DNA of 64,000 bases. It comes from Candidatus Babeliales bacterium. Its GTDB lineage: Bacteria > Babelota > Babeliae > Babelales > JANWKD01. Below the pieces are notes generated by a model that did no database searches, was not told where the DNA came from, and worked only from the letters and a program-made list of their open reading frames with translations. Position numbers and translations under genes: made by a program. Shown here one piece after another: positions 11,089 through 46,268 of this stretch. Where the stretch lies: positions 576,001 to 640,000 of the forward strand of contig CAVRJM010000001.1 in NCBI GenBank assembly GCA_963722075.1, written 5' to 3'. The stretch's first letter is position 1. Each line of letters starts with the position of its first letter.

Positions 11089-11164
11089 GGGCGGTTAGCT
11101 CAGTTGGTAGAGCATCAGTCTTACAAACTGGGGGTCACTGGTTCGAATCCAGTACCGCCCACCA
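11089..11164 (+). tRNA. tRNA-Val(TAC)
   Basis: GGGCGGT/ACCGCCC acceptor stem, loop CTTACAA, GTTCGAATC T-loop, encoded CCA. Confidence 0.97.
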
Positions 11165-11216
11165 GTCTTCGTTTATCCGGGCCTTCCGGCTCGGCAAACT
11201 ACGCCTGGCGCGGCCA
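11162..11216 (+). repeat. REP-like palindrome fused to the tRNA-Val 3' end
   Basis: CCAGTCTTCGTTT-ATCCGGGCC-TTCC-GGCTCGGC-AAACTACGCCTGG-CGCGGCCA. Confidence 0.7.
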
Positions 11217-11259
11217 ATTTCTTAAATGATTGAAATTAATAATAAAAGAATAGCGAAAT

Positions 11260-11317
11260 GCCAAGGCTATGCCTGGGCAGACCAGCCACGCCATAGCTCG
11301 CAGAGCGGCGGCGAGCC
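11260..11317 (+). repeat. REP-like GC-rich elements between tRNA-Val and tRNA-Asn
   Basis: GCCAAGGCT and CGCCATAGCT-n5-AGCGGCGGC both recur at 43606-43691. Confidence 0.6.
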
Positions 11318-11327
11318 AAAAATGTAT

Positions 11328-11402
11328 TCCTCGGTAGCTCAGTGGTAGAGCACACGACTGTTAATCGTTAGGTCGCTGGTTCGAATCCAGCCCGAGGAGC
11401 CA
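11328..11402 (+). tRNA. tRNA-Asn(GTT)
   Basis: TCCTCGG/CCGAGGA acceptor stem, loop CTGTTAA, CCA. Confidence 0.97.
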
Positions 11403-11428
11403 GTCATTTCCTTCAGAAATGCCTGGCA
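11399..11428 (+). repeat. 30-bp tRNA-3' hairpin, copy 1
   Basis: GCCAGTCATTTCCTTCAGAAATGCCTGGCA, identical to 11561-11590. Confidence 0.9.
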
Positions 11429-11487
11429 AGCCATTAAATGATTATAAAATTTTCACTCCGTTTGACACCTCGTCAAAGCGGATGTTG

Positions 11488-11564
11488 GGAGCTGTAGCTC
11501 AGTTGGTTAGAGCGTCCGCCTGTCACGCGGAAGGTCGTGGGTTCGAGTCCCATCAGCTCCGCCA
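11488..11564 (+). tRNA. tRNA-Asp(GTC)
   Basis: GGAGCTG/CAGCTCC acceptor stem, loop CTGTCAC, CCA. Confidence 0.97.
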
Positions 11565-11590
11565 GTCATTTCCTTCAGAAATGCCTGGCA
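11561..11590 (+). repeat. 30-bp tRNA-3' hairpin, copy 2
   Basis: Identical to 11399-11428. Confidence 0.9.
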
Positions 11591-11684
11591 GGCCAGTCTC
11601 TTAATAAGCACGAAATTTTTTCTCTCCATTTATAATGAAGCCTATTATAGGTGCTCAAATAACTGATTATATTCACGCCCAAAG

Positions 11685-12473
11685 TCATTCATGGAATAAA
11701 TAGTGTAAATACTGCTCTGGATTATCTAAAAACTGTTTTGTAATTTGATAATGTTGGGAGTCCTGATAACTAATAGTTTTCAGGACTTCTGAATCGCATG
11801 AATAAATAGTAGCCTGGGGAAATGCCAATAGTAGTGGAGAATGAGTAGCAATAATAAACTGTGCATTATAAGAATTTTTGCACATTTCATGGATAATAAG
11901 CATAAGGGTAAGTTGCTTTTGTGGTGAAAGGGCAGCCTCGGGTTCATCAAGTATAAAAAAACCAGCATTACCAAGCCTGTTTTGAAAGAAGGAAAGAAAA
12001 CTTTCTCCATGTGATTGCTCATGCAGTGATTTCCCACCGTATGATGCATATGCCTGCCAGTCAGTTTGAGCAAGTACATCAATATAATTCGCAACGTTAA
12101 AAAAGCTTTCCGCTTTAAAAAAATACCCATTTTGTGGCTTTTTGCGCCATGATAGCGTAAACCGTTCAGAAAATTTTTCAATTGGAGTATAGAATTTCTC
12201 GTCAGCCGTTCTAAAACTAATATTTTTGCTGCCACCTTCAAAGCCAAAACCTGCTTTTAATGCAAGAGCTTCTAAAATAGTTGATTTACCGGTGCCATTT
12301 TCTCCAACAAAAAAAGTTACCGCAGTAAAAAAATTAATTTCGTGAAGATTTTTAATAATAGATAAAGAAAATGGATAACTATTTTGGTCGATATCATCAG
12401 GTATAGTAACTTTTACTTTATCCAACAACGGACCATCTAGAGAGGTACTATATTTTTTTGAGAATTTGCGCAT
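11685..12473 (-). CDS. Predicted ABC/AAA ATPase (COG3910-like)
   Basis: GENGTGKS Walker A, SHGESF, ILDEPEAALS Walker B, IIATHSP. Confidence 0.85.
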   Translation of the reverse strand: MRKFSKKYSTSLDGPLLDKVKVTIPDDIDQNSYPFSLSIIKNLHEINFFTAVTFFVGENGTGKSTILEALALKAGFGFEGGSKNISFRTADEKFYTPIEKFSERFTLSWRKKPQNGYFFKAESFFNVANYIDVLAQTDWQAYASYGGKSLHEQSHGESFLSFFQNRLGNAGFFILDEPEAALSPQKQLTLMLIIHEMCKNSYNAQFIIATHSPLLLAFPQATIYSCDSEVLKTISYQDSQHYQITKQFLDNPEQYLHYLFHE

Positions 12474-12525
12474 AGTTAAAGTATATCATAAAAATCACAT
12501 CCGATGAAGGATTTTTTGAGACCAT

Positions 12526-13976
12526 TGTTAGTGCAAAGTGATAAATTCCTCTTATAGCGCAAAGTAAAAAGTTCCGGTTTTTAGGGTAAACTTAATCTTG
12601 AAGAAAAAAAGAATAAACCCTAAAAATACACCGGAACTTATATGGAATATATTACCATGAATAAGAAAGAACGAGAACAGGCAAAAGTGTTTGCTCAGGT
12701 TAAAGAAGGAAAGCTGACAAAGGCAGAGGCAGCGGAACGCCTGAGGTTTACCAGGCGCTGGGTAAGGGAAAAATATACAAGATACTGCCAGTTAGATGAC
12801 TTTGGCTTAGTACATGGCAATAGAGGAAAGGCAAGCCCGAATAGGTGGGATCAAGAGGAGAGGCAACTGTTAATAACCTTGTTGGAAGGCGATTGGCAAG
12901 GCTTTGGACCAACCTTTGCAGCTGAAAAGCTTAATGAGTTACATGGGATACAGGTAAGCCGAGAAGTTGTTAGAAAGGCTATGATCGAAGAGGGTTTATG
13001 GCATTCCAGAAAACGAAGTGGTAAACATCGTAAACGACGAGAAAGAAAACTAATGTTTGGCATGATGATTCAGCTTGATGGGTCACCACATGACTGGTTT
13101 GAAGGTCGTGCTCCAGAATGTACGCTACTTGTTTTCATTGACGATGCTACCAGCCGTATTCTTTGGCTTGAATTTGCTCCATCTGAATCAGTATTTGCTT
13201 TAATGGCGGCAACTAAAAATTACATTGAGAAATATGGAATCCCTCAAACTTTTTACGTAGACCATGGATCTGTTTTTCATGTTAATTTGAATAATAAAGA
13301 TGATATTAAAAAGACTCAATGGGAGCGTGCTTGCGAATCTATAGACATTGAGATTGAACATGCCCATAGCCCTCAGGCAAAAGGACGTGTTGAACGATGC
13401 AATCAAACCATGCAAGATCGCCTTATTAAAGAGATGAGGCTTGCTGGCATATCATCAATAACTGCTGCAAATAATTATCTAAGAGCGAGTAACTTTATCA
13501 CCAAGCATAATGCTGCATTCCAAGTCCCTCCAACTCAACAAGGCAATGCACATGCTGATGCTCAATCTTATGACTTAGCCGATGTATTCAGCATGCAAGA
13601 GACTCGCATTCTTATGAACGATTTTACTATTACTTACCACAATCGCATTTTTCAATTGACTCCGCATCAGAAAACAATTCTACGCCCAAAGGATATTATT
13701 GTTGTTAAGGTGCATTTAGATGGAGAAATTAAACTGTGGATTAGAAAAACAGCGCTTGCTTTTAGTGAAATTTATCAACGAGTAACCCCACAAGTTCAGG
13801 AGAAAAAAATAGTAGATTACAAACCAAGAAAGCCTTCACAGAGCAGTCAACGTTGGGTAAGCGGTTTACCCCCTCGCGAGAGTAGGGTGAAGCCGGCTGC
13901 GCCGGCCGTGGAGGCGCTTTAATGAGAGGAACTTTTTACTTTGCAAAATAGTGGAATTTTTCACGTTGCTTTGACA
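12526..13976 (+). mobile_element. IS1202-like (ISNCY) insertion sequence with 17-bp target-site duplication
   Basis: TGT...ACA termini; each imperfect ~50-bp IR has two GCAAAGT(G/A)AnAA(A/G)TTCC-like sites; GGATTTTTTGAGACCAT at 12509-12525 and 13977-13993. Confidence 0.92.
12642..13922 (+). CDS. ISNCY/IS1202-family DDE transposase
   Basis: N-terminal HTH, IQLDGSPHDWFE, IDDATS, YVDHGS, PQAKGRVER. Confidence 0.92.
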   Translation: MEYITMNKKEREQAKVFAQVKEGKLTKAEAAERLRFTRRWVREKYTRYCQLDDFGLVHGNRGKASPNRWDQEERQLLITLLEGDWQGFGPTFAAEKLNELHGIQVSREVVRKAMIEEGLWHSRKRSGKHRKRRERKLMFGMMIQLDGSPHDWFEGRAPECTLLVFIDDATSRILWLEFAPSESVFALMAATKNYIEKYGIPQTFYVDHGSVFHVNLNNKDDIKKTQWERACESIDIEIEHAHSPQAKGRVERCNQTMQDRLIKEMRLAGISSITAANNYLRASNFITKHNAAFQVPPTQQGNAHADAQSYDLADVFSMQETRILMNDFTITYHNRIFQLTPHQKTILRPKDIIVVKVHLDGEIKLWIRKTALAFSEIYQRVTPQVQEKKIVDYKPRKPSQSSQRWVSGLPPRESRVKPAAPAVEAL

Positions 13977-14149
13977 GGATTTTTTGAGACCATGAAAATA
14001 ATTAATGAATATACCGTAAATTTTTTTGATGCTCATTTAAAATAAGCTCAGTTCAATTATTTTACCATCGAATTTGCGTTAATCATTGATTGTTTGTCCA
14101 ATAAATTGTACGCTTGAATTGTATATATTGTACCGTGATGGGAATAAAA

Positions 14150-14459
14150 ATGAGAAAAAAATATATATTCTATAAAACGGATGAATATCAAGAATGGCTG
14201 GATAATGAAACAGCTAAATCACAGGTACAGATTGCCGATCGCTTATCTAAAATAGAGATGTATGACCATTGGGGAGATCATAAGCCTCTGGATGAAGATA
14301 AGGATGTCTGGGAGCTAAAAATGGGTCAATGGAAGAAGGCTATACTATGCCTATCTTGAAGAATTAGATATATTATTATTGCTGGGAGGAAATAAAAATG
14401 GTCAAAATAAAGACATCACAAAAGCAAAAAAAATCCTTAGAAAATATACAGAAACGTAA
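14150..14459 (+). pseudogene. RelE/ParE-like (HI1419-type) toxin, frameshifted
   Basis: Removing one A from the A5 run at 14317-14321 gives ...WELKWVNGRRLYYAYLEELDILLLLGGNKNGQNKDITKAKKIL*, the typical LLLGGxK..Q..DI..A tail. Confidence 0.85.
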
Positions 14460-14745
14460 AATAAAGAAAGGTGTAGTATTAATACCCTACAGCCCCCACA
14501 AAGAAATTACTGATGAAGATTTTATAGGAAAAGCATTGTTAGAATGCTTAAAAAACAATGATCCTGAAGGGGTCATGGAAGTTATCTCTGTTTATTTGAA
14601 TGCTATTGAGAAAACGAGTTTTGCCAAAGAAGCCAATGTTCCTAAATCAACACTTTATTATGGTTTAAAGGGAAAAAACCCAACCATCAAAACTTTAGCA
14701 AAAATTATTCATGCAACAACACTTCAATCTACTACTAAAAGATAA
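14398..14745 (+). CDS. HTH antitoxin (HI1420-type addiction module antidote)
   Basis: FAKEANVPKSTLYYGLKGKNPTIKTLAKII HTH; overlaps the toxin 3' end. Confidence 0.8.
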   Translation: MVKIKTSQKQKKSLENIQKRKIKKGVVLIPYSPHKEITDEDFIGKALLECLKNNDPEGVMEVISVYLNAIEKTSFAKEANVPKSTLYYGLKGKNPTIKTLAKIIHATTLQSTTKR

Positions 14746-14901
14746 CAATGCTGCTCACTCTGATTTTAGTACACAATTCCACGCTCGCCCCAAAGGTAAA
14801 TCCACCAATTTGAATGTTTTTTCTTCCAAATACATTTGGTATCGCTTAAATGATTTTTGTTCAAATGCATATTCACCAAAGATACCTAATAAAGAAAAAA
14901 T

Positions 14902-15008
14902 GCATTAGATTTAGGCGCCGGAGCAGGTAAGATACCGCATTTCTGTTCAAAAATGGTTGGCATGTTTGGGCAAATGACGTAGAATGTTTCGAACCTATAC
15001 TAGCTTAG
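14902..15008 (+). pseudogene. Class I SAM-dependent methyltransferase remnant
   Basis: ALDLGAGAG(K), then one frameshift later DTAFLFKNGWHVWANDVE. Confidence 0.65.
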
Positions 15009-15021
15009 AAAACTCAAAAAT

Positions 15022-15441
15022 ATGAACATTACCACTATTAAAGTCGGCTGTGAAATTTTCTTAATAAAAGACAACACAATTTTATTGGGAAAAAGAAAAA
15101 ATTGTTATGGTGAAGGCACATGGGCACTTCCTGGAGGACACTTAGAACAAGGTGAATCTATTAGGGAATGCGTAATTAGAGAACTAAAAGAAGAATTAGG
15201 TATAGAAGCGATAGAGTTTAGATTAGTTAGTGTAGCAGATTATATTAATGAGCGCGGTCATTATGTTCACATTTCTTTTTTGCTTGAAAATTTTTTAGGC
15301 GAAATACAAAATATGGAACCATATTATTGTTATGAGTGGAAATTTTTTTCGCTTTCTAATTTACCAAAAGATCTGTTTAACCCTCATATAAATATTCTCA
15401 AAAACTATTTTGAAAACATTTTATATCTCGAAAGAAAATGA
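15022..15441 (+). CDS. Nudix hydrolase
   Basis: Nudix box GGHLEQGESIRECVIRELKEELG. Confidence 0.92.
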   Translation: MNITTIKVGCEIFLIKDNTILLGKRKNCYGEGTWALPGGHLEQGESIRECVIRELKEELGIEAIEFRLVSVADYINERGHYVHISFLLENFLGEIQNMEPYYCYEWKFFSLSNLPKDLFNPHINILKNYFENILYLERK

Positions 15442-15445
15442 TTTC

Positions 15446-15601
15446 ATGAATAAAATATGTGCAGAATATTTAAAACCAGGTGATCATATTCGTGTAATTG
15501 CACCCAGCCTTTCTATGACAATCTTATCTGAAGAAACAATAAAGAATGCTATGGAGCGTTTTCAGCAAATGGGATTAAGATTTCATTTTGCTAAAAAATA
15601 A
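15446..15601 (+). pseudogene. Truncated S66 LD-carboxypeptidase (MccF-like) N-terminus
   Basis: LKPGDHIRVIAPS...AMERFQQMGLRFHF, stops after 51 aa. Confidence 0.75.
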
Positions 15602-15614
15602 CATGGCTCATTTT

Positions 15615-16853
15615 TTATTTTAAATCCCATGGTACTGCTATAATATCTTCTGCAATTCGATAACATTCATCGCCAGCATAAATGACTATTCCTGGCGCTA
15701 TCTTTAGATGGGGATAAGTTTCTCTGAATGCGGTAATTCCACGCACTTCATTTTTACTGACAGTAGTTGCTGATTTTATTTCAATGGGATAAAAGATTCC
15801 GTCAATTTCTACCAGAATATCAACTTCAGCTCCTGCCAAGGTTCGCCAATGATAAAAATTGGGGATTAGTGGTAATGAAGAGCAAAAAGCTTTAATCATA
15901 TTAAAACAGTAAGATTCAAAAAATGCTCCTTGCAGGGGACTTACCGCAAGAGCGTCTGGTGATGAAATGCGTTGTTGATAGCATGCGAGGCCCGTGTCGA
16001 AAATTATACCTTTTGGTTTTGCTGAAAGGCGTTTAATGCTATTCATGTGAAAGGGTTGCAACTCAGTCCATTGATAGGTATACGTGAGTAATTTAAGCCA
16101 TCGTTGGGCTGTTTTGGGTGTAATACCCAGCTCCCTTCCCAGTTGAGAGTAATTTATTTCTTGAGAAGATAATGCTGAAAGCAATCCTAAAAATTGTCCG
16201 AATGTTGCAAGATCTTCGATGTTTTCTAATGTTCTTATATCTCGTTCGACATAGGTTTGTATATAGGATGAAAAATAAAAGGGCAATGCACTATTTGGGA
16301 TATCAATGATCCCGGGCATGCCTCCGCGCCAAATAGCTTCTAAGCGTGATGGCATGTTTTTGAGCTTCTCCAGAGAATTTTTAAAGAAATTGTCTGGATT
16401 TTTTAAATAGTTCAAAAACCAATTTTTATCCTTATCAAATTCATCGTACATCTCATGGGGAGTCATTGGGTTTATAGGTATGATTACAACTCTGCCAGCA
16501 AGACTTTCGGATACATTCTTAAGAATTGATAGCTGCTGAGACCCCGTTAGGTAATATTGACCTGGTTTATCAGAAAGATCAACAAAGCGTTTTAAGGAGG
16601 GTAACAACTCAGGTACAAATTGAATTTCATCCAATATCAAGGGAGTGCCAAAATCCTTTAAGAAGAGGTCTGGATTTTTGCGGACATTGTAAAGATCTTG
16701 AATGGGATCAAATACAAATATCTTGGTTGAAGGGAAAAGATGGGAAAGTAACGAACTTTTACCTACCTGCCGGGCTCCCACTAAGAATATAATTTTGTAT
16801 ATTTTTGATAACTCTGTAATCAGGGATTCGTAAATTCTTTTTTTATAATTCAT
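15615..16853 (-). CDS. AAA_14 ATPase with DUF4143 domain
   Basis: GARQVGKS, LDEIQ, LTGS, GGMP, TYVERDI, DTGL, EVD..EIK. Confidence 0.88.
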   Translation of the reverse strand: MNYKKRIYESLITELSKIYKIIFLVGARQVGKSSLLSHLFPSTKIFVFDPIQDLYNVRKNPDLFLKDFGTPLILDEIQFVPELLPSLKRFVDLSDKPGQYYLTGSQQLSILKNVSESLAGRVVIIPINPMTPHEMYDEFDKDKNWFLNYLKNPDNFFKNSLEKLKNMPSRLEAIWRGGMPGIIDIPNSALPFYFSSYIQTYVERDIRTLENIEDLATFGQFLGLLSALSSQEINYSQLGRELGITPKTAQRWLKLLTYTYQWTELQPFHMNSIKRLSAKPKGIIFDTGLACYQQRISSPDALAVSPLQGAFFESYCFNMIKAFCSSLPLIPNFYHWRTLAGAEVDILVEIDGIFYPIEIKSATTVSKNEVRGITAFRETYPHLKIAPGIVIYAGDECYRIAEDIIAVPWDLK

Positions 16854-17104
16854 TGTTTTTCTATTTTTATCTTGTAATTTAATTATCATATTACCATTTT
16901 ACTAGGCAATTGAGCAATAATTTTCGTGGGATTAGGCAGATAGTCTAATCTCGTTTCGTCTTTTTTTTAAATTAAAATATTTAAAAGCCAATCTTCGATA
17001 GACTCCTAGCTAACTGGAGTGTTGCAATTAACTCTGATAGAGTAAGTGACATATTTCAGAGCAAACAATAAAATGGTGCACCAGTGATACGAGAAGGAAC
17101 AATT

Positions 17105-17200
17105 ATGGCAATCTCTAACGAGGTTATTGAAGAAGTAAAAAAAAGACTTATCGAGGTATACGATCCCCTTAAAATTTATCTTTTTGGATCATATGCATGA
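17105..17200 (+). pseudogene. Minimal nucleotidyltransferase (MNT) 5' fragment
   Basis: MAISNEVIEEVKKRLIEVYDPLKIYLFGSYA*; the DxD motif does not follow. Confidence 0.7.
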
Positions 17201-17379
17201 TTCTCTCGCAACCGGCTTATCACAAATCTTCCTGCTTGAGCTTGTAAAAAATTTTTGTCTTTTTGTCTATTAATAATTATTAATACCTTATATACTGTAT
17301 CTGTTTTTATTTGTATCCTGACAAAAGTTGGTAGTATATGGCGTGTTATAGTTTCTAAACTTTAAAGTCGATACACACA

Positions 17380-20300
17380 ATGAAACACAGATCAAAACTC
17401 TTACTCTTTATTTTTCTTTCATTTTATTTTCCCCTCTTTACTATGCAAAATAAGCCCGACAAAGATTTGTACTTAAGCCAATTACAAACGCAGGTAAAAC
17501 CGGCATTTGGCTTGGACAGATTATATGAACCTGGGTTTATCAGCCCCAAAAAAGAATTAAAAGATAAAAAAAAGCAAGAAGATCCGTCTCAACTTGATCT
17601 TCTTGAAAGTAACCCTTTCCAGAGTTTAGGATACCAAAACAAAGCAGTTGGCGAGACCTTAGAACTTTTTGAAAATTTCAGCGACGGAGTCTCATCACAT
17701 AATGAATCGTCTTTTGATGCCTTTATTAGCGGGCTAGCACAGGTAAGTGCAAATATTGTTATTACTGGAGCAATAGGCTACTACGCAAGCGCAGCGCTTG
17801 GGGCATGCTCAGAAGCCAAATATCTTAAAGAAAAATTTGATGAATTAGATAGTAATAATGTCTCTAGCCCGGCTGCAAATGTTCTAAGCGTTATGCAGAC
17901 TGGTTGCACCGTTCAAGAAAATTTTGATAATATTGGAATAATTCTTCAAGCAGCAGAAAAACTCGATCAACAAAAAAGAAAAGTTATTAAATCGCATGAA
18001 AAAAAGCTCATGCAGTTTGCAACACTCATAAGAGAAGGCATTAAAAATTCATCCTATGATCTTCACCAAAGCTATTATGGCGGCTTGACCTATCCTGTAT
18101 ATACACAACATCAAAGAGAAAAAATCTCTAACATCCCAGAATTTGATCTAGAAAAATCTCACCAAGAATATTGGGCTCAGCATGAACGAGGTCTACGACG
18201 ATTCCAAGAAGAAAAAAAAGCTGCAAAACAAAAACCACAAAAAACCACTGCCAATAAAAGTAGTAATAGCAATAGCATAGCAGCAACCGACACCACGCAG
18301 GCTCGTGAAGAGCGTGCTAAAATTTTTGTAGAACAACAAAAAAAATTAGACACATTGCTCAAAGAATTCAAGTCAGAAATGGAATATCAAGAAGCAATGA
18401 GCACCATTGCCGGTGGATTTAACGGAGTTGCTGCAATAGCTTCTATTTTTGGAAACAAGAAAGAAGCGTATGCTATTGCAACATTCGCTACAGCCGGCAT
18501 TCAGGCTGTTGATAGTATGCGCACTATTGCGCAAGCAGGTTTAACAGGAGCAGGCATTCATCCCTATGTCGGCATACTTATGTCAGTTGCAAGCATGGTT
18601 AGTCTCTTTCAAGAAGATGATGCTCAAGATGGCACACAAGCAATTCTTGATGCAATTGCACACGGCATTATGCATTTATCACAACAAATACATCAATTTC
18701 AAGAAGAAGTGCGCGAACAGTTTGCAGAAGTGCATAAAAAATTGGACAAACATCATTTGATCGTGCTTGAAAAATTCTTTGCGCTACATCAAGATCAAGA
18801 GAATATTCTTCAGCATTTAAAAGATCTTCACACTTATATAGCAGATAATCACAGAGCGATTCAAAGTGGCATTGATGCATTGCATGCACGCGTTGATACC
18901 AATTTCAGAATGACTCTTGATAACTTGAATGGTTTTCGCATAGAAAATATCGATAAATTAAGAGAACGTTCATTGCTCATTTTAAAGCGTACTGATGTTT
19001 CACCGGAAGAATTTAGCAGATGCTTAGATGAACTTTATATTGAAGGAACAAGCGGAGCATCAGCCGATGCATTAACGGGCGGATCAGTTGATATTCATTC
19101 CCCTGCTGCAATTCAAACGGTACTTGAAAGATCATCTTCACTGCATAATATTTTTGAACATCCGGCATTTGCCAACATCAATTTACTCAGTAGATTTCTT
19201 TACCATGAAAAACTCGTAAACCCCTTAATTTGGATTAAATGTGTGGATACGATTATGCAAATGCTTGATCAAAAACTTAAGCCTGATGAAGAATATCCAC
19301 CAACAGAAAACATGAAAGATTTGGATATTAAAAAATTGCTGCTTCTCAAAAAGCATGGTAAAAAAGTACGCGCATTTATAAAAAGAGTTGGCCAAAAAAA
19401 ATATCTAGAACATATGGCGCAAACCTATGAGCAAGGATTACAAGAACTTTCAGAAGCAGTTCAGCATGTGCAAACAAATTTTGAAGAAAAAGAAACGCAA
19501 TTGCTGCGCAGAGAACATACTGCTTTTTTTGAAGCAGAAAGATCAAAAACACAAAGAATTGCAAGTTCGTATGAATGTAAAAAATGCGTTGAACATGTTA
19601 CATACTTTACTCAACCGACAAATAGATATAAGATACTGTACCAACGATCCGATCCTTTCTGGTTATATTATCGAGAACAAAAAGACCCCCCACATTCCCG
19701 GCGTGCTCCGCCTCTTTTACCAGAATGCAATGAAGTTCATATGTTAAGCACCGGCGAAAAGAAACCTACTGATGTTTTAAATCCAACCGAAAAACTTAAA
19801 CAAATTTGCCAAGAACATACACACTTTATGGAAGCGCAAAAGGATTTGTTACTTAGATCAATAGCATTGGATCTTACGCACAATGCTTGTAATGCGATAG
19901 GTAATGGAAGAAGTCAATGGTTATATCCTGAAAATGACGCTACTACTATTCCAATTCTTCTGTTGCCAAAACAAAATCTTCCTCTTAATTCCATCTATAT
20001 TACTGCCGAAAATAAAGGAAAGGGGACGATAACGCATGAATATACTACCACAGGAAATGTCTTTCATTTACAGTCGTATTTTACGATTAAGCACAATAAT
20101 CAAAAAGTAAAAATTTTAGATATGTTTAAGCCATATACTTCAGAGCAAGAATACTCTTCAATTGAAAACATACTTCATTATTGGTATGGAGGTCGTTTTG
20201 CAAAAGCTCCTGATCTCTTTAAAATACAACGAAATAATATGACGTCTTGGCACTTCTTTCCTTTTCCTCCCATAACCCCCTATCCAGCCGAACGCGATAC

Positions 20301-21048: not shown

Positions 21049-21282
21049 TACAGTTAAAAACCATTAATCCTTTTTACGACCTTTATGTCCCTTAGTTCTT
21101 AACTGTTTTAAAGCGAAGAAAACAAAAGGCAGAAGTGAAAGTAAATATTCCCAGCACAAGAAAACCAACATGATAAAGCAACCTGTTTCAAATACTAGCG
21201 CTTTGCATGCAACGAAAAAGAACAATAAATAAAAATGCTTACTTTTTTTGGGCAACCATAAGTATGCACTCTGATTTATTTT

Positions 21283-22092
21283 CTATTCCGCTCCCTTTTG
21301 AATTACATAACAATACTGCAAATCAGCAAACTTCAATAATGGCTTAATAACCACGTTATAATGCAATCCCTGAAGCTCAAATGATTTAATGGTGCCAATG
21401 CCAAATCCTTGTGGAAACACTAACCCTTCTCCACTAGAAATTACTAAATCATCATTTTTTAGCGTATGAAGATGACTCACATATTGTAACATCGATTGCT
21501 TTTTTTTATTAACACCTTCATGAATACCATGTGCTTGCGATGATAAGCAGTATGCAGCCATTTTACATTCAGGATCAGTAATAAGTTTTACTTTACTATA
21601 ATAAGGATACACATGCGTTACTCTTCCTACTAAACAATTCTTGTACACCGCAATCATATCAACCGTTACTCCGTGAGCACTACCGCAATCAATGAGATAC
21701 GAATGTTCATAAGCAGAAAAATGCTTCATAATGATTTGTGAAATTCGTGCATATTGCACATTATATTTTGATTTAAAATTAATAACTTCTTGCGTGTGAT
21801 TATAATAATGTAACGTTGCTTGTAACCCTATATTTTCTGATCTTAACTGCTCATTTTCTTCTTTTAATACGGTTGATTGTTTCTGTATTAAATCCATTTC
21901 TTTTTTCTTTTTAACATATGAAACAATCGGTTGGCATACTACCTGTTGCAGCTTTATAAAAGGATATAGTATGAGTGATACACCCTGTTGCAGGTAATTA
22001 GTTGGAACATACAACAACCTATAAGAAACAGCGGCAATACTACTCAAGAGAATTAGATAATACAAAAAAGAACGTACTCGCACGGCAAACAT
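21283..22092 (-). CDS. mreC: Rod shape-determining protein MreC
   Basis: TM helix, coiled coil LKEENEQLR, LVGRV...SKVKLITD, VISSGEGLVFPQG. Confidence 0.9.
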   Translation of the reverse strand: MFAVRVRSFLYYLILLSSIAAVSYRLLYVPTNYLQQGVSLILYPFIKLQQVVCQPIVSYVKKKKEMDLIQKQSTVLKEENEQLRSENIGLQATLHYYNHTQEVINFKSKYNVQYARISQIIMKHFSAYEHSYLIDCGSAHGVTVDMIAVYKNCLVGRVTHVYPYYSKVKLITDPECKMAAYCLSSQAHGIHEGVNKKKQSMLQYVSHLHTLKNDDLVISSGEGLVFPQGFGIGTIKSFELQGLHYNVVIKPLLKFADLQYCYVIQKGAE

Positions 22093-22217
22093 AATAATCT
22101 TTCATCATATTTGTTTACGACATAATGCATCATATAATTTTTTATTGAATAGTTAAAAATCATTATGATACGCTGCAAGTATACTCATAAAATTATATTA
22201 ATAAAGGGAGCATTCTA

Positions 22218-23459: not shown

Positions 23460-23532
23460 ATTAATTTGATTACAAGGAAATTGGTACTACGTACTTAATG
23501 AGCTTAAAAAATTTTGTATTGATATAACAATA

Positions 23533-23560: not shown

Positions 23561-23587
23561 AAAGTAACATTAAAAAATATTATATTT

Positions 23588-23968: not shown

Positions 23969-23970
23969 TG

Positions 23971-33827: not shown

Positions 33828-33897
33828 GCCTTTTGTACCATTCCTATATATTGTTATACTTATTACATTGGTTAACCATATTCATTAAGGAAATGTC

Positions 33898-34524: not shown

Positions 34525-34530
34525 TCACCC

Positions 34531-39390: not shown

Positions 39391-39467
39391 TACTATCACT
39401 CCGCTTTTTTATTTTTCACTGTGATTGTAGCTAAAGATATTGTAAGTAGCGGAGTAAAAACAATATT

Positions 39468-41213
39468 TTATGTTTGTTGTTGTGCAAACATCTCTTTTAT
39501 TTCATCTGGCGATGTCGATTGTTCTGGCGTTTTATCAAGGCGATATTCTATAAAACGAGGAAATCGTAAAGCAAATCCTAAATGCTGTTCCGTTTTACCC
39601 GCAGTATGCAACGGTGAAATAGTAATTTCATCAGCTAAAATGGTACATACAATAGTGGGATAAACCCATACATCGGGAAAGAGTTCTTTAGGACATTCAA
39701 TATTAATTGGTTTTTCTTCAACTTTTAAAGAATCTGCTTTATTTTTTAAGGCAACCCATTCTTCATCAGTAAGCCCCGTACCTATTTTTGCAATGGTTTG
39801 AAAATGATCTTTTCGTTTGTTATAAATTCCCACTAAGAAAGCTCCAATTCCAAAAGCTGCTCGTTTACCTGACCCATAATAATACCCCAATACAACACAA
39901 TCGATGGTATCCTCTAGATGGCCTTGCGTAATTCTTTTTAACTTAATCCAATTAAAATTTCGTTTGCCTGGTTGATACGTAGAATTTATTTTCTTTACCA
40001 TCACCCCTTCTAATCCCGCATCAATATTCTTTAAAAAATAGGATTCCAGATCTTGCACAGAGTTGATAGGAATTTCAGGGATAATTTGAATTTTAAGCCC
40101 GACATAGGATTGAATAAGATCAACAAGAGCTTCTCTTCGTTGATGGTGCGTACGATCCATTAAATCCTGCCCATTTAGGTAGAGAATATCAAAAAGAAAT
40201 ACCTGTAATGGATACTCACTGGCTGCTTCCTCGATACCATGTTTTCTTTTACGTTTCACCGTTTCTTGAAAGGGAACAAAAACACCGGTATTAGGATCAT
40301 ATGCAATTGCTTCACCTTCACAAATAAGCTCTTTGACATCAAGTTTCATAAATTCTTGTGCGACATCAGGAAACATATGAGTCATATCTAGTAAATTACG
40401 TGAAAACAATTTAATGAATGGTTTTTTTGGATCAGTTTTATCAAGGTGAATTTGCAACCGAAAACCATCTAATTTAGGCTGTGCAACACTGTGCCCCAGT
40501 TTTTCAAAAACAGCCTGTGGATCAGGTAAGCGTTCAGCTGCAGCCATGCGAATTGGAATACCAATTTGACTGTGCATATGCTGCAAGGAGTTGATCCCCT
40601 TTTCCTTTATGGTATGAGCAATATAGCCAATATCGGCGCAAATGTTATAGGCATTTTCAATTTCTTTATGTAAACTTTTATCCCCTTTTTCCATCCATGA
40701 TAAGGCATCCACAAGGGTCATATCTGAAAAACCAAGCCGTAATTTCCCCAAAATGATACGTATAACATATTTTGCTGATAGAGAATCTAATTCTTGGAGC
40801 AACTGCAATACATGGCTATATTTTTCTTCTTGAGAACCGGTTCCACCAATAGCTTCCAATTCGAGTAATTTTTGATTAACTTGCAGTAATGTTACCTCTT
40901 TATCAGTATGCCATCCGCCATAAGCATCGATAACAAGCCCTAAATCACCCAATTCTTTCGTTCTTTTTGCCACTGTATCAACGGGTAAATTTAATAATCC
41001 GGCCACTACTTTTATAAGACTTTTTTCTGCCATATTAAATTGTGTACCGCCCTGGTAAGACGGGCGTAGCATTCCTAAGGAGAAATTACAAATGCAGGCA
41101 GCTTCATGCGCTGAAGCCTTGCTCAATAATTCAGCTAATAGCTTAGTAATCTCAGTTCTTGAAGAAACGATACTAATTTGTTCAAACACGTGTGCTACTG
41201 TTTTAAAAAACAT
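39468..41213 (-). CDS. lig: ATP-dependent DNA ligase (three-domain, archaeal/LigI-like)
   Basis: PKLDGFR (motif I), EGEAI, FDILY, EGVMVK, WIKLK, LRFPRF; N-terminal DNA-binding domain; start at MFFKTV. Confidence 0.92.
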   Translation of the reverse strand: MFFKTVAHVFEQISIVSSRTEITKLLAELLSKASAHEAACICNFSLGMLRPSYQGGTQFNMAEKSLIKVVAGLLNLPVDTVAKRTKELGDLGLVIDAYGGWHTDKEVTLLQVNQKLLELEAIGGTGSQEEKYSHVLQLLQELDSLSAKYVIRIILGKLRLGFSDMTLVDALSWMEKGDKSLHKEIENAYNICADIGYIAHTIKEKGINSLQHMHSQIGIPIRMAAAERLPDPQAVFEKLGHSVAQPKLDGFRLQIHLDKTDPKKPFIKLFSRNLLDMTHMFPDVAQEFMKLDVKELICEGEAIAYDPNTGVFVPFQETVKRKRKHGIEEAASEYPLQVFLFDILYLNGQDLMDRTHHQRREALVDLIQSYVGLKIQIIPEIPINSVQDLESYFLKNIDAGLEGVMVKKINSTYQPGKRNFNWIKLKRITQGHLEDTIDCVVLGYYYGSGKRAAFGIGAFLVGIYNKRKDHFQTIAKIGTGLTDEEWVALKNKADSLKVEEKPINIECPKELFPDVWVYPTIVCTILADEITISPLHTAGKTEQHLGFALRFPRFIEYRLDKTPEQSTSPDEIKEMFAQQQT

Positions 41214-41304
41214 CTTTTCTCCCAATTTAATTTGATCGTACGATATATTGTTATTAAAGCAAAGACAAGTAACATACAGTATCATGAAAAGAATGATATA
41301 ACTA

Positions 41305-41889
41305 TTAAGACACTGCTTTATAGCCATTAATAAATGATCTAATATTTTTCTCATGACGCCATAACCCCCAACTACTGATAAAAAAAGAAAGCATAATCAT
41401 TGATGGATTAATGCCATTATAAAAAAGGGTAACAAATGGTAAACTTATAAGGCCCATCACCGATGCAAAACCTACGTTCTTAGTAAGGAGCACCGCACAA
41501 AGCCATATTAATAAAACACCATATAGAATTATGCCATTAAGCGCTAATAGTATACCAATAGCAGTTGCAATTCCCTTACCCCCTTTACCCTGTAAAAAAC
41601 AAGAAAATCCATTACCAATTAATAAGGCGATTGAAGAGCTGAGTAATACAAAATCAGGTAGCTGAAATTGAATCAAAAGCTGCAAGAAAATGTACGCTTT
41701 TATACAATCAAGAAAAAAAACAATAAAGAAATATTTAATACCTGCAACGCGCGCTACATTAGTAGCACCGATATTTCCTGAACCATGTTTGGTTATATCG
41801 TCAATACCCACATACCGCGCTAATAACCAACCAGAAGGAATCGCACCAATAAGATAAGCAATAATAGATACAATTAATAATAACATCAT
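41305..41889 (-). CDS. plsY: Glycerol-3-phosphate acyltransferase
   Basis: YLIGAIPSG, GSGNIGATNVAR, KGGKGIAT, RHEKNI. Confidence 0.93.
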   Translation of the reverse strand: MMLLLIVSIIAYLIGAIPSGWLLARYVGIDDITKHGSGNIGATNVARVAGIKYFFIVFFLDCIKAYIFLQLLIQFQLPDFVLLSSSIALLIGNGFSCFLQGKGGKGIATAIGILLALNGIILYGVLLIWLCAVLLTKNVGFASVMGLISLPFVTLFYNGINPSMIMLSFFISSWGLWRHEKNIRSFINGYKAVS

Positions 41890-41893
41890 TTCA

Positions 41894-42478
41894 TTATCTA
41901 CAAGCAGCAACCAGATTATGAGCACAATCTAATTTAATAATTTCTTTATTTAATTTTAGTATATTTTGCTCTGTTCCAATAATAAAGACCTGACTATCAT
42001 TTTTTAATAACATTTTTGTTCCATTTTTATGATTATATAATACAAACTTATTTTCATATGCATTTATAATAAAAATTGATTCTAATATTTCTTTAAAAAA
42101 CATATTCAACCATCTGTTTTCCGGATGCTCAAGTTTAAAAGTTATCAGCGCTGAAGGCTTCTCTATATCAAATAAACAAAAAATAATCATAATAGTTACA
42201 ACTAAATCTGGTTTACCACGAAGATAAAATGCATTTTTATTAGGACAATATGAACCAATTACCGAAAGACCAGTAACAAATTGGTTAAACGAATCAATTA
42301 AATCAGATTGATAACGTAAATAATAATATCCTTCTATTTCCTGACTACCATCAATTTCAGTCAATGATACTGATTGATTATAAACAGTAAAGAATTGGTC
42401 TGGGGTAAGAGTAGCGCTTTCAGCGTTAATTGAGAAATTAAATAAAAGAAATAATAGAAAAGAATAAGTCTTTAACAT
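41894..42478 (-). CDS. Hypothetical exported protein, possibly with degenerate secretin-N (NolW-like) repeats
   Basis: Signal peptide; NAFYLRGKPDLV...LFDIEKP and SQVFIIGTEQNI...IIKLD. Confidence 0.5.
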   Translation of the reverse strand: MLKTYSFLLFLLFNFSINAESATLTPDQFFTVYNQSVSLTEIDGSQEIEGYYYLRYQSDLIDSFNQFVTGLSVIGSYCPNKNAFYLRGKPDLVVTIMIIFCLFDIEKPSALITFKLEHPENRWLNMFFKEILESIFIINAYENKFVLYNHKNGTKMLLKNDSQVFIIGTEQNILKLNKEIIKLDCAHNLVAACR

Positions 42479-42657
42479 TAGTAACCCTTAAATATCAATT
42501 ATAGAATATACAAAATATAATATCATATATAAAGACTTAACTCAAATTTTAAAAACTTTTCTAATAGAGTTATTTTTTGATATTTATACCAACCTCTTAT
42601 TAACTTTTCTTAAAAAAAATTATATAACTTACGATAATAAAAGAGAAAGATTAATAA

Positions 42658-43560
42658 GTGAACATTACATTAAAAGTCTTTGTATTATGTTTTTTATGTT
42701 TAATAAACTCTTTAAGGGGAACTGGATCAATCGTTTACAATCTTAGAGTTACTGAAACCACCAAACGATCAATTTTTGAACAATTAAAAATAAAACCGAA
42801 TATTGCTATAGGAACTGCCTTTGATCAATTTAGAAAACGGGATTTTTTATCATTTCGAGAAAATTTAAGCGGCGCCATGTTTACTTATGTTTATATGCCC
42901 TGTTCATTTTATTTTAAAGTTGATTGGGCGTTGGGTAATAATGTGCAATGGACAAAACATTCTTCTCAATCTAAAACCCAACTTGATGATATTCTTTTTA
43001 GTTCGGGTTATGGATTTCAAGCAACTAAAAAAACAAACATGACCGTTTCTGCGCTTCTTGGCGTTCCAACTCATAAAGATCGCAGTTTAATGGAAGCACA
43101 ATTTGGTACAGGGCATCTTGGTTTAGGAGGGCAATTAGATGGCGCATATAAGTACGCCGAAAAACTATCACTTCGTTTTGCGGCACGTGGTATCCATTTT
43201 TTCAAGCGAACCACAAAGATACCTCTTGCTGATCTAGAGGAGCAATTTATTTTTGCATTAGGTAATTTAACCGATTTATTAATTAGTAATCATCTAAAAT
43301 ATAATAAACATAATGCTGAAATTGGCTATAATGCTTCATTTTTAACTAATGCCCATTTAACCCCCAACGAACCGGCAATTAGTAATCAAATTGATTACAT
43401 CCGTAGTGACTTCTATATTAGCTATGCCTATGGTTTTCTAATCCGCAATCATTTAAGCGGTTTCATCTTGGGCTTCTCTTATGGATTTGATCATCTGCCA
43501 AAAATGGTCGGGCTCAAACAGATTTTCACCGGATGGCTTTCCTGGGGAATAAATTTCTAA
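42658..43560 (+). CDS. Probable outer-membrane beta-barrel protein
   Basis: Signal peptide, alternating aromatic strands, C-terminal WLSWGINF beta-signal. Confidence 0.65.
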   Translation: MNITLKVFVLCFLCLINSLRGTGSIVYNLRVTETTKRSIFEQLKIKPNIAIGTAFDQFRKRDFLSFRENLSGAMFTYVYMPCSFYFKVDWALGNNVQWTKHSSQSKTQLDDILFSSGYGFQATKKTNMTVSALLGVPTHKDRSLMEAQFGTGHLGLGGQLDGAYKYAEKLSLRFAARGIHFFKRTTKIPLADLEEQFIFALGNLTDLLISNHLKYNKHNAEIGYNASFLTNAHLTPNEPAISNQIDYIRSDFYISYAYGFLIRNHLSGFILGFSYGFDHLPKMVGLKQIFTGWLSWGINF

Positions 43561-43576
43561 GAAAACCCATTCCCTC

Positions 43577-43823
43577 TTGTCATCCTGAGGAACGCGTCCG
43601 ACTTCGCCAAGGCTGGCTTCGCCGGATTTTGTGAGTAGCGTGTCTGTCCGGCGTAGTTGTTTACCTCCGCCATAGCTTTTTTAGCGGCGGCTGGATTAAA
43701 CGAAGAAGGAACGTCAGGATCCAGTTAAAAATAAAAATCAGAAAAAAATCACTTTAATTTATTAACACCAACGGAAAAAATAAATCACTGGATCCCTACG
43801 GCCTAAAGGCCTCAGGATGACAA
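43577..43823. repeat. Palindromic MITE/REP composite with 14-bp terminal inverted repeats
   Basis: TTGTCATCCTGAGG (43577-43590) / CCTCAGGATGACAA (43810-43823); inner GGATCCAGT / ACTGGATCC; nested GC-rich hairpins. Confidence 0.85.
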
Positions 43824-43883
43824 AGGCTCTTCTGATTATTCCCATAATATGGTACACATAGGTTAGATATTAATTAGATTAGT

Positions 43884-44453
43884 TTATATAGGATAAAATT
43901 TAATAAATGATCTATAATATAAATAGGCTGAATAGAGAGAAAGAAATAAAGAAATAACTAAAAATAGATTCTCAACAAATATACTTTTACTACCAATCAA
44001 CAACGATCCATCAATAATAACGAGCGTAATATAAATGGTTTGAGCTACTGTCTTTAATTTACCAAACCAGGAAACCGGAATATCAAATCCGCGCTCCAGC
44101 GCTAGCATTCTTAATCCCATTACAAAAAATTCTCTGCCAATAAAGACAATAGCTATATAAAAAAAAAGCTTTTGAGCTGCTACTAATGCAATCAAGGTAG
44201 AAAACAATAAAAATTTATCTGCTAGCGGATCAAGTGCTTTTCCTAATGCCGTTACTTGATCATATTTACGAGCAAGATACCCATCAAAAAAATCGGTCAA
44301 GCTGAGTAAAATAAAACACAGTGCCAACAACAAATTAATAAAGAGAGAATTAAAAGGAATTAAATATACAAGTAATATTGGTAAAAATAACGGAGAAAAA
44401 ATAAGTCGAATTAATGTTAATGCTGTTGGTGTATTTAAAGAAGATAATTGCAT
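43884..44453 (-). CDS. pgsA: CDP-diacylglycerol--glycerol-3-phosphate 3-phosphatidyltransferase
   Basis: LTLIR, TDFFDGYLARK...GKALDPLADK, RE, GKLKT. Confidence 0.92.
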   Translation of the reverse strand: MQLSSLNTPTALTLIRLIFSPLFLPILLVYLIPFNSLFINLLLALCFILLSLTDFFDGYLARKYDQVTALGKALDPLADKFLLFSTLIALVAAQKLFFYIAIVFIGREFFVMGLRMLALERGFDIPVSWFGKLKTVAQTIYITLVIIDGSLLIGSKSIFVENLFLVISLFLSLYSAYLYYRSFIKFYPI

Positions 44454-44458
44454 ATAGA

Positions 44459-44535
44459 TGGTGGCGACGCAGGGACTCGAACCCCGGACCTACGGATTAT
44501 GATTCCGCCGCTCTAACCAGCTGAGCTACGTCGCC
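44459..44535 (-). tRNA. tRNA-Met(CAT), probably elongator
   Basis: GGCGACG/CGTCGCC acceptor stem, loop ATCATAA, CCA; lacks initiator features (C1 mismatch, GGG/CCC anticodon stem). Confidence 0.9.
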
Positions 44536-44558
44536 ATTTACCTTTATAAATCGTTAAT

Positions 44559-46142
44559 TTAAATTTTTATTGTTTGCATACCTATAGTATAAAGGAAAAA
44601 GTTAAAAATGGAACGCAAAAAGAACAATCCAGTGATTAAAGTTGCAATAATACCGACCATCAAGGTTAATGCAAAGCCTTGAATCGGTCCTGATCCAAAT
44701 TTGTATAAAACTATACCAACAATAAACGTAGTTATATTTGAATCTAGAATAACTTCCATAGCATCAGAAAAACCACTTTGTACTGCTTTTTTAGTAGGAG
44801 TTCCTGCAGCAAGTTCTTCTTTAATGCGCTCATAAATTAAAATTGACGCATCAATTGCCATCCCTATAGTAAGCACCATACCCGCAATACCCGGCAATGT
44901 TAAGGTTGCTTTAAGCCATCCAAGAACCAATAAAATAAGCAGTAGGTTAAAGAGCAAAGCCATCACGGCAAAAATACCAGCAACTTTATAAAACAAAACA
45001 CTAAATACAGAGAGTAGTAACAAGCCAACAGCGCATGCAATAAGCCCTTGCCTAATTGATTCTTGCCCAAGAGAAGGCCCAATACGGCGTTCTTCTTCAA
45101 AGGTAACGGGTGCTACAAAGGCACCAGATTTTAATAATAGTGCTAATTCAGTAGCACTTTCAGGAGTAAAATTACCATGAATATACCCACTTGCACCAAT
45201 GGGAGTTGATACACGCGGTGCAGATACCACAACGCCATCAACTATCATAGCTATATTGCGATTAAAATTTTTACGGGTTAATTCATAAAATTTTTCACCG
45301 CCCTCAGGGTTAAATACGAAATTTACGACCACTTCAGTTTGCAACTGCCCACCAAAGCCGGTATATGCATCTTTTAATAAGCGCCCCGTTAAATCGGTAT
45401 GCGATGGCACTAAATAGTAATGCTTACCACGGCCTTCATCGCCGCTCATTCCCGGCACAATAATCATACCTTCAGGAAGTTCGCCATCATAGGCATCAAG
45501 AATTTCTTCAGGGCTGCTTCCTTCACGCTCAACTAATTTCACTTCTAATAATGCTGGTTTGCCAATCATTTCTTTTGCTTTTTGCGGGTCATCTATATCA
45601 GGAAGTTCAACAATAATATTTTTTTCGCCTTGTGCCGAAATAGGAATTTCGCCAACACCTAAGCTATCTAAACGTGTTCTTAATACTTCAATATTGCCCT
45701 TAACAGCATTATCAGCTATTCGCTTAGCAATTGCTTCCTTAAAGCTTACCTTTACCGTATCGCCTTCCACTTCTGCATTTAATTCAGATTCTTGTCGTTT
45801 AATAACGCTTTGTACTGCCTGCGCTTCAGATGGATTTGCAAATTTAAGGCGTGCTTCGTTTTTCTCTATTACTTGTGATATAGGAGCAAAATTGAGTTCT
45901 TTTTCAAATTTCTTTGCTAACGATGAAACTTTATCAGTTAAATCAGTTTCGATTGCTTTATCAGTTTGCACACCTAAGGTAATGTAGGTTCCGCCTACTA
46001 AATCGATGCCAAATTTTACCCGATCCTGGCGTAACTTTAATTTTCCATTCTCAAAGGTAAATAGGTAAAAAAGAATAGCGACTGCGCCAACCGTCCATAC
46101 CACAAAACTGGAGCGTGCTAATGATTTAATTGATAAATCCAT
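44559..46142 (-). CDS. secD: Protein translocase subunit SecD
   Basis: GIDLVGG, LGVGE, IIVELP, IGPSLG, LTLPGIAG, DASILIYERIKEE, DSNITT. Confidence 0.95.
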   Translation of the reverse strand: MDLSIKSLARSSFVVWTVGAVAILFYLFTFENGKLKLRQDRVKFGIDLVGGTYITLGVQTDKAIETDLTDKVSSLAKKFEKELNFAPISQVIEKNEARLKFANPSEAQAVQSVIKRQESELNAEVEGDTVKVSFKEAIAKRIADNAVKGNIEVLRTRLDSLGVGEIPISAQGEKNIIVELPDIDDPQKAKEMIGKPALLEVKLVEREGSSPEEILDAYDGELPEGMIIVPGMSGDEGRGKHYYLVPSHTDLTGRLLKDAYTGFGGQLQTEVVVNFVFNPEGGEKFYELTRKNFNRNIAMIVDGVVVSAPRVSTPIGASGYIHGNFTPESATELALLLKSGAFVAPVTFEEERRIGPSLGQESIRQGLIACAVGLLLLSVFSVLFYKVAGIFAVMALLFNLLLILLVLGWLKATLTLPGIAGMVLTIGMAIDASILIYERIKEELAAGTPTKKAVQSGFSDAMEVILDSNITTFIVGIVLYKFGSGPIQGFALTLMVGIIATLITGLFFLRSIFNFFLYTIGMQTIKI

Positions 46143-46240
46143 AATTTGTTTTCCTTTAATATGTATATTTATTCAATCCTACTCTGTAAATTTTTATTAT
46201 TTTCTTATCCAGCCTTATTGATAATATAATAAACTGGCCA

Positions 46241-46268
46241 GCCAGTCATTTCTCTTAGAAATGCCTGG
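46241..46268 (-). repeat. tRNA-3' hairpin, copy 3 (after tRNA-Leu)
   Basis: GCCAGTCATTTC-TCTT-AGAAATGCCTGG differs from copies 1/2 only in the loop; its TGG is the tRNA-Leu CCA. Confidence 0.85.

Follow-up and report, generated by a model that had tools for sequence, protein, structure and literature searches.

What sets a hairpin directly behind a tRNA gene, so that its first arm opens with the tRNA's own CCA? The question is raised by a stretch of 64,000 nucleotides from a Candidatus Babeliales bacterium (GenBank assembly GCA_963722075.1, contig CAVRJM010000001.1, forward-strand positions 576,001 to 640,000; hereafter the window), in which four of the six tRNA genes are followed by such a structure. 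These hairpins are likely to be leftovers of a very small selfish element, which targets tRNA ends without an integrase, and not a signal for tRNA processing. At a probability of roughly 60%, we read them as gene-less, shortened leader copies of a cassette that encodes a GIY-YIG nuclease of about 80 residues and is docked behind the CCA of tRNA and transfer-messenger RNA (tmRNA) genes; the cassette would spread by a nuclease cut of single-stranded DNA at the tRNA 3' end and repair copying from an occupied end. The observations behind this reading are an exact left junction at the CCA, a variable right end, the lack of a duplication, covarying stems, orthologous sites that are empty or filled differently, trailers common to non-allelic tRNAs and a tie to one nuclease clade.

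Hairpins docked on the CCA of tRNA genes

ARAGORN and Rfam identified six tRNA genes in the window, and the Rfam scan of the window returned tRNAs only. As described in an initial annotation of this DNA, a hairpin directly follows tRNA-Val(TAC) (11089..11164), tRNA-Asn(GTT) (11328..11402) and tRNA-Asp(GTC) (11488..11564) on the plus strand and tRNA-Leu(GAG) (46266..46352) on the minus strand. Its 5' arm opens with the CCA of the tRNA, the docking site (11162-11164, 11400-11402, 11562-11564 and 46268-46266, respectively), and its 3' arm closes with TGG. Both tRNA-Met genes (44459..44535 and 57459..57535, minus strand) are empty sites. The copies at Asn and Asp represent a short type, a stem-loop of 27 nt with one T-C mismatch (11400-11426 and 11562-11588), followed by a tail (11427-11433 and 11589-11595), so that the docked units span 11400..11433 and 11562..11595. 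The 30-mers starting at 11399 and 11561 are indeed identical, and the hairpin proper, as printed in the initial annotation, measures 27 nt. At Leu, the short type is inverted in place (46242-46268, tail 46235-46241; unit 46235..46268, minus strand).

The Val copy has the same outer arms around a longer insert and represents a long type (11162..11208), with a CCA-GTC outer arm, the inner insert and a GCC-TGG arm. Its tail (11209..11216) can pair back on TGGC and ends in GCCA, as do the other three tails, all of them quoted correctly before. Behind it follow an AT-rich spacer (11217..11251), a distal inverted copy of the Val 5' arm (11252..11260), degenerate as judged by inspection, and a second GC-rich hairpin (11286..11315), all on the plus strand. 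In intact cassettes, a module like the latter sits before the start codon of the nuclease; behind the Val copy, such a gene is absent. The Val spacer is common to the trailer of tRNA-Ser(cga) elsewhere in the genome (local score 67 vs at most 26 after shuffling), and the Val-type long hairpin also stands behind tRNA-Lys(ttt) of the same genome and behind several tRNAs of three relatives, namely G001 from the same genus and G003 and G004 from the same family. Folded as single-stranded DNA, the Asn and Asp copies reach -6.2 kcal/mol each (z -2.98 and -2.29 vs shuffles) and the Leu copy -9.2 kcal/mol (z -4.40). The Val copy folds no better than shuffles (z -0.78), and the outer CCA stem is absent from its minimum-energy fold. 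Parts of 11117-11405 are matched without a differing letter by contigs of three public runs from two studies, one of which may be the source sample, and this argues against an assembly artefact. RNA runs were absent from the public runs listed for this sequence.

Across the whole genome (labelled G000; 1.47 Mb, 34.7% GC, 99% complete, with the window on its contig C1), 28/37 tRNA and tmRNA genes carry a docked hairpin, 16 of them of the short type. A blastn-short search of the genome with all 28 hairpins returned 36 loci, of which 28 lie at a CCA end, three in or near tRNA trailers and five elsewhere. The tRNA specificity proposed initially is upheld, since only these five lie elsewhere; scattered copies without tRNA enrichment were not seen. 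Among 151 genomes of the order, a pattern running from the T-loop to CCA-NNN-TWCG gave 1037 matches vs 88 for the reversed control. The short type is present in 14/151 genomes, and 8/9 of its loci sampled outside G000, G001 and G003 stand at a tRNA CCA. It was found fully inverted, with only the loop or only the arms inverted, and with the mismatch corrected. Template switching of DNA within a quasi-palindrome would be expected to yield inverted and mismatch-corrected forms.

Directly downstream of the tRNA cluster, the minus strand of the window encodes an AAA/ABC-type ATPase (11685-12473) and a transposase-like protein of 426 aa (12642-13922), both labelled by inspection. Elsewhere in the genome, a stretch behind the hairpin of tRNA-Ser(gga) (C1:236300-236420) appears, from its motif, to resemble signal recognition particle RNA.

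A GIY-YIG nuclease gene behind the same leader

The initial annotation had suggested searching for a partner gene of the GIY-YIG or the Y1 transposase type flanked by the repeat. The search returned the former: three GIY-YIG open reading frames (ORFs) lie 104-194 nt behind the hairpin-bearing tRNA-Gln, tRNA-Gly(gcc) and tRNA-Glu, following the same leader, and no Y1 transposase of the REP-associated tyrosine transposase (RAYT) kind was found flanked by the repeat. The nuclease of 79 aa matches Pfam PF01541 (E 2e-15) as a single domain of under about 100 aa, and Y5, Y17, R27, H31 and E63 are invariant in 16 aligned homologues. Its structure model (pLDDT 93.9) matches HIGLE, Slx1 and UPF0213; the best PDB match by sequence is the UPF0213 protein BH0048 (E 9e-4). 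NCBIfam holds no family for the three nucleases. In the tRNA-Glu cassette, an internal TGA occupies the same position in G000 (C1:1112932; L004) and G004 (L230:~1050), and the copy on contig C4 of G000 has CGA there and other breaks.

The link between nuclease and tRNA ends extends well beyond this genome. In the 151 genomes of the order, 24/30 of the best homologue loci have the nuclease within 500 nt behind a tRNA on the same strand vs 0/30 for a control clade, the second GIY-YIG type of the same genome. A scan of GTDB placed 68/80 loci (the best 80 of 596 confirmed loci; three of these 80 duplicate loci of the order set) within 500 nt behind tRNA or tmRNA genes of 15 kinds, with the same leader. 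Carriers include Alphaproteobacteria, Acidobacteria, Verrucomicrobia, Planctomycetota and Nitrospira, and the cassette is present in several copies per genome, often broken. Moreover, the median number of docked hairpins is 8 in genomes of the order with the nuclease (n=92) and 1 in those without (n=59). A permutation within families reached this association in 0/10000 cases; for the control clade, p=0.07.

The control clade is represented in G000 by one intact and two decayed copies (C1:1398408-1398695, 140112-140399 and 1361610-1361855; L001, L005 and L006), each with inverted CGTC-like hairpins on both flanks, and these are likely elements of the Ssn family, which is discussed below. In a tree of 88 rows, which includes neither SsnA nor the CDD sequences, the control clade forms one side of a branch (96/87), apart from the tRNA-docked nucleases. 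The GIY-YIG genes of the same genomes that are locally flanked by hairpins resembling the SRM repeats of Ssn systems make up that branch, with 0/30 behind tRNAs.

Leader folds, empty sites and displaced copies

The hairpin noted initially is real; what had been missed is that it is merely the first module of a longer leader. This leader begins with the CCA and 5' arm, an inner stem and an imperfect 3' arm ending in TGG. The tail and an AT-rich spacer come next, then the 5' arm again as a perfect inverted copy, another GC-rich hairpin and often a start codon. Stem pairs were counted by script and not with a covariance model, because the inner lengths are too variable; 79/81 copies from four genomes were parsed, about five of them wrongly, and the counts refer to copies, not to independent events. 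The three pairs after the CCA covary (GTC/GCC 32, ATC/GAT 12, TAC/GTA 7, GTC/GAC 5, GGC/GAC 4, GCT/AGC 3, GCC/GGC 2), and the closing TGG is present in 73/79. A perfect inverted copy of the own 5' arm follows downstream in 37/79 long-type copies vs 6.6 +/- 2.2 with arms shuffled, and in 44/68 leaders across phyla vs 16.7 with shuffling. Because the distal inverted copy follows its own arm, the leader has two mutually exclusive folds.

Two alternative, covarying folds would suit an RNA switch. This speaks for an explanation in which the nuclease gene is a passenger: the leader would be a regulatory RNA or a repeat similar to repetitive extragenic palindromes (REPs), which spreads between tRNA ends by ordinary recombination together with hairpin-driven replication slippage, and the nuclease would have a role in repair and use read-through from the tRNA for its expression only. 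Its predicted fold resembles the Slx1 and HIGLE repair nucleases, and most hairpin copies come without the gene, both of which are in line with a passenger. Nevertheless, we regard this explanation as unlikely. The same cassette at 15 tRNA and tmRNA kinds in many phyla, multi-copy and often broken, is easier to reconcile with a selfish gene than with a repair gene, and the number of hairpins goes along with this nuclease and scarcely with the control clade. Furthermore, no T-run stands behind the tail in 36/38 copies across phyla, and therefore no conserved attenuator is present.

The tail had been proposed to be a target duplication. This was rejected: the base before its CCA equals the discriminator of the tRNA in only 13/70 copies and is G in 66/70, whatever the discriminator. 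The GCCA tail is encoded by the element. Insert lengths vary and no common right end exists, so that neither target-site duplications nor fixed ends, as would be expected of MITEs or IS-derived miniature elements, were found. In tRNA-Phe and tRNA-Thr(cgt) of G003, a second hairpin is docked on the CCA of the tail.

Several loci show further arrangements of the leader. At L171, L191, L158 and L213 the modules are permuted: the distal arm and second hairpin come first, and the proximal arm and tail close the leader. At L098, L219, L080, L085, L088, L090 and L101 the leader is repeated in tandem, in some cases with a duplicated tRNA 3' fragment and in some cases again behind the nuclease gene, which suggests local amplification. 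At L099 (genome G074), leader and nuclease interrupt a duplicated 5' half of tRNA-Arg in its anticodon arm; the insertion point is a CCA, and a whole copy of the tRNA lies downstream. This is docking at a CCA other than a tRNA 3' end.

The initial annotation had offered a second explanation, a signal that serves tRNA 3' processing or protection by keeping the CCA hidden in the precursor. We consider it here as a function of the host, together with a role in termination. Pairing predictions provide some support. With the trailer taken only up to the tail, the CCA is predicted to be paired (P>0.5) in 19/26 tRNA-plus-trailer folds of G000, and in the window its predicted pairing amounts to 1.0 for Asn, 0.92 for Leu, about 0.5 for Asp and 0.2 for Val. 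The conserved TGG closure and the covariation of the next three pairs are also compatible with a signal. In addition, trailers may matter in a cell with this set of ribonucleases: G000 has genes of the RNase PH/polynucleotide phosphorylase (PNPase) family and of the PolyA_pol family, without an RNB-family (RNase R/II) match or an RNase Z over the cut-off in this genome. The only match to the RNase Z model, a weak one (E 2e-5), is an ORF of 451 aa with a metallo-beta-lactamase fold just upstream of tRNA-Val (window 9166-10521, minus strand), which we take to resemble a beta-CASP ribonuclease. PNPase-sized and RNase PH-sized genes are adjacent at C1:762517-765020. As to termination, TTTT stands within 12 nt behind the tail in 20/65 copies of four relatives. 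An intrinsic terminator was rejected, as the initial annotation had anticipated: the region 10900-11800 of the window contains 0 terminator-like sites, and a U-run is confined to a minority of copies (in addition to the 20/65, 2/38 across phyla).

Against a host signal stand the folds of full leaders and the orthologous sites. Among 26 full leaders, selected because both arms are present, pairing with the distal arm is favoured in 19/26 cases as RNA and 22/26 as DNA, and the first C is mostly unpaired; hiding of the CCA therefore belongs to the truncated form. The short hairpin occurs in either orientation, also with only its loop or only its arms inverted. Island arms, which are not tRNAs, also retain copies (see below), and 17/151 genomes of the order lack any docked long-type pattern. 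Orthologous tRNAs were compared in G001, G003 and G004 (34 tRNAs analysed in each; Rfam listed 36, 36 and 42; tmRNA left out). Filled ends amount to 18/34, 18/34 and 16/34, where Ala(ggc) of G004 counts as filled though it has the 5' arm only and one false positive, a Met gene of G004, was taken out; four spurious ARAGORN predictions in L069 were likewise discarded. The remaining ends are empty, as are 9/37 in G000. For example, G000 is the only one of the four genomes with a filled site at Gly(tcc), Thr(tgt) and Thr(ggt), where 110-300 additional bases separate the CCA from the retained old spacer: the spacers measure 146, 393 and 157 nt vs 26-35, 93-98 and 38-50 nt in the three relatives. 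Conversely, all three Met genes are empty in G000 and five are filled across the relatives. Orthologous filled sites hold the same hairpin type in only 19/81 pairs, with an own dominant type per genome. Within G000, the trailers of Lys(ctt), Phe, His and Gly(gcc) have one AT-rich spacer in common and two different first hairpins. Since orthologous sites are empty or hold other hairpin types, tRNA processing does without the hairpin. A host function of this kind is thus quite improbable, and it was the other initial proposal, a small non-autonomous element at tRNA CCA ends, that was supported by the empty sites, the swapped types, the tRNA specificity and the linked GIY-YIG gene.

A further question is whether another enzyme places the hairpins, such as tRNA-targeting large serine recombinases or a Y1 transposase of the RAYT/IS200 type. 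Serine-recombinase islands in the relatives indeed use the same CCA junction. In G003, the 3' end of a gene for a large serine recombinase (505 aa) is formed by the antisense strand of tRNA-Arg(tct), and the far arm of the island, 7.5 kb away, ends in CCA, followed by hairpin, leader and nuclease. The same arrangement exists at tRNA-Glu in G004, where the displaced cassette has 81% identity with the copy that immediately follows tRNA-Glu in G000. Of the six loci without a tRNA among the order's 30 best nuclease homologues, three are of this displaced kind. In G000, two short hairpins away from tRNAs (C1:871928 and 881823) follow far-arm relics that are 87% identical to the far arm of G003. The relics lie 3.7 and 13.6 kb behind tRNA-Arg(tct); this tRNA carries a hairpin of its own, and a recombinase is no longer present. 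This tRNA end appears, from the arrangement of these remnants, to have been re-occupied twice; in the simplest order of events, an island insertion would have been followed by re-occupation of the tRNA end, a second island and a second re-occupation.

We consider such an enzyme very improbable as the agent of docking. Islands were seen at only four kinds of tRNA, where they leave a far arm of their own, and G000 has no Recombinase-family match, with only an N-terminal fragment on contig C4. Its one Y1 transposase gene, which could otherwise be a candidate (PF01797 match), is a single ORF of 129 aa with no hairpin match nearby, and no reverse transcriptase was found in G000. Neither RAYT/Y1 nor a reverse transcriptase is therefore supported as partner in this genome. 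The cassette itself holds no integrase and duplicated tRNA fragments occur only at few loci (L098, L099, L219), so that it does not have the make-up of a tRNA-targeting integrase island.

The islands showed several other features. Contig C4 looks like the relic of a tRNA-Glu island, with a recombinase fragment, a far arm, a hairpin with CCA/TGG changed on both sides and a broken nuclease (C4:5400-5700 and C4:11833-12006). Trailers with recombinase genes were seen at Arg(cct), Arg(tct) and Glu of G001, at Glu, Arg(tct) and Arg(cct) of G003 and at Glu and Gln of G004. Where large serine recombinase genes (L137:7380-8897; L230:15239-16687) end in tRNA antisense, the TGG of the CCA is read as Trp. 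In the island far arm, a conserved alternative C-terminus is encoded that opens with the same Trp, and the tail of the recombinase would therefore change on excision.

Putative mechanism and relation to known elements

How could such a small cassette reach so many tRNA ends? By analogy with SsnA, which cuts single-stranded DNA a few bases upstream of its hairpin according to the main text of Chenal et al. 2025 (PMC11893778), the nuclease would be active and would cut single-stranded DNA near its hairpin or at the tRNA end. Repair would use the shared T-arm and CCA as microhomology, by template switching or gene conversion from an occupied tRNA end, and the same repair would invert loops and arms in place. 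Transcription reading through from the tRNA promoter would express the cassette, and the host would tolerate it since the tRNA stays intact in sequence.

Several points weigh against the cassette reading. Cleavage and mobility are predictions from sequence. GIY-YIG domains are not known to have a strand-transfer step, and insertion would therefore have to rely on host repair. Of the three nuclease copies in G000, only the one at Gln (79 aa; C1:371244) is intact with an ATG; the frame at Gly(gcc) is open and, where the start would be expected, shows no common start codon, and the one at Glu carries the internal TGA. The correlation between nuclease and hairpins is overstated, because the genomes are related and incomplete, and 8/59 genomes without a detected nuclease hold nine or more docked hairpins and 6/92 with it hold 0-1. 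Pro, Val(gac), Trp, Cys and Ile are empty in 4/4 genomes, which a rule based on the CCA only leaves unexplained; some of them do show the docked pattern in other genomes of the order. Island arms account for two of the five blastn loci outside tRNA clusters and leave three (C1:142703, 168751 and 1311863) unexplained. Finally, contigs of four public DNA runs yielded neither a conspecific empty site nor a piece that spans the stretch, and no co-conversion tract was seen within the tRNA itself.

Among known systems, Ssn (SsnA, CDD cd10448) is similar in several respects. As presented in the main text of PMC11893778, it combines a stand-alone, single-domain GIY-YIG protein of 80-95 aa with its own imperfect DNA hairpin (NTS/SRM), many gene-less hairpin copies and the same catalytic Tyr/Tyr/Glu pattern; there, Chenal et al. 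liken NTS-ssnA-NTS to a mobile element. The nuclease described here likewise has a single GIY-YIG domain of under about 100 aa with catalytic Tyr, Tyr, Arg and Glu. Unlike in Ssn, its hairpins lie on the 5' side of the gene and are docked on the tRNA CCA, and the word tRNA is absent from that main text. The published SRM pattern was found at 1/30 and 0/80 nuclease loci and 0/37 trailers. It has low sensitivity here: in the control clade, it detects 5/30 cases upstream and 6/30 downstream.

REP, BIME and REPIN sequences, as portrayed in the text of Di Nocera et al. 2013 (PMC3733652), have in common with the present copies that they are short imperfect palindromes with many extragenic copies, inverted pairs and mosaics. 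CGTC-tagged REPs end in a short unpaired tail that fits CCA and, according to the same text, lack a dedicated transposase. Unlike REPs, which are dispersed between genes, the copies described here are tied to the tRNA CCA (28/36 loci, two more at a displaced CCA), and the linked gene is a GIY-YIG nuclease and not a Y1 transposase as in REP/RAYT systems. The phage T4 nuclease SegB also belongs to the GIY-YIG type, is encoded among tRNA genes and, in the account given in PMC2330249, spreads by cut-and-repair gene conversion without an integrase. In that account, however, SegB occupies one locus and moves between phage genomes, whereas here an 80-aa domain with a hairpin leader occurs at many non-allelic tRNA ends of one chromosome, along with gene-less copies. 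E. coli tRNA-linked repeats (PMC8144298) also directly follow tRNA genes and end in a tRNA-like 3' sequence; going by their description there, they repeat 18-19 bp from the 3' end of the gene that lies upstream, in contrast to the fixed GCCA found here, which is independent of the tRNA. The literature covered, to which most subscription journals and the supplements of PMC11893778, with their lists of GIY-YIG clades and flanks, do not belong, holds no account of a GIY-YIG/hairpin cassette at bacterial tRNA ends.

Altogether, the element works like Ssn/SRM and REP/RAYT, departs from the defining features of each and is a member of none. It is a real and new form of nuclease-plus-hairpin selfish DNA with a putative mechanism, and by analogy it may spread like a free-standing homing endonuclease. 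More tentatively, and at somewhat less than an even chance, it could represent a pan-bacterial class of minimal homing element: an 80-residue nuclease with a switchable hairpin leader, for which the universal CCA serves as target and at the same time supplies part of the stem. Needing no integrase, transposase or reverse transcriptase, such an element would place copies of itself, and miniatures that lack the gene, on any tRNA or tmRNA gene; it would return to a tRNA end once an island has moved the earlier copy away, and it would have filled three quarters of the tRNA ends here.

If this holds true, a very large group of unexplained stand-alone GIY-YIG proteins would gain a job and a natural substrate, and the Ssn idea of a tiny nuclease with its own hairpin would extend to a clade aiming at tRNA ends, as a case of site-specific spreading without a recombinase. 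It would also make testable whether an 80-residue nuclease recognizes a DNA fold at the tRNA end, which could provide a tool, and how tRNAs whose precursor CCA is predicted to be paired mature in a cell with few 3' ribonucleases.

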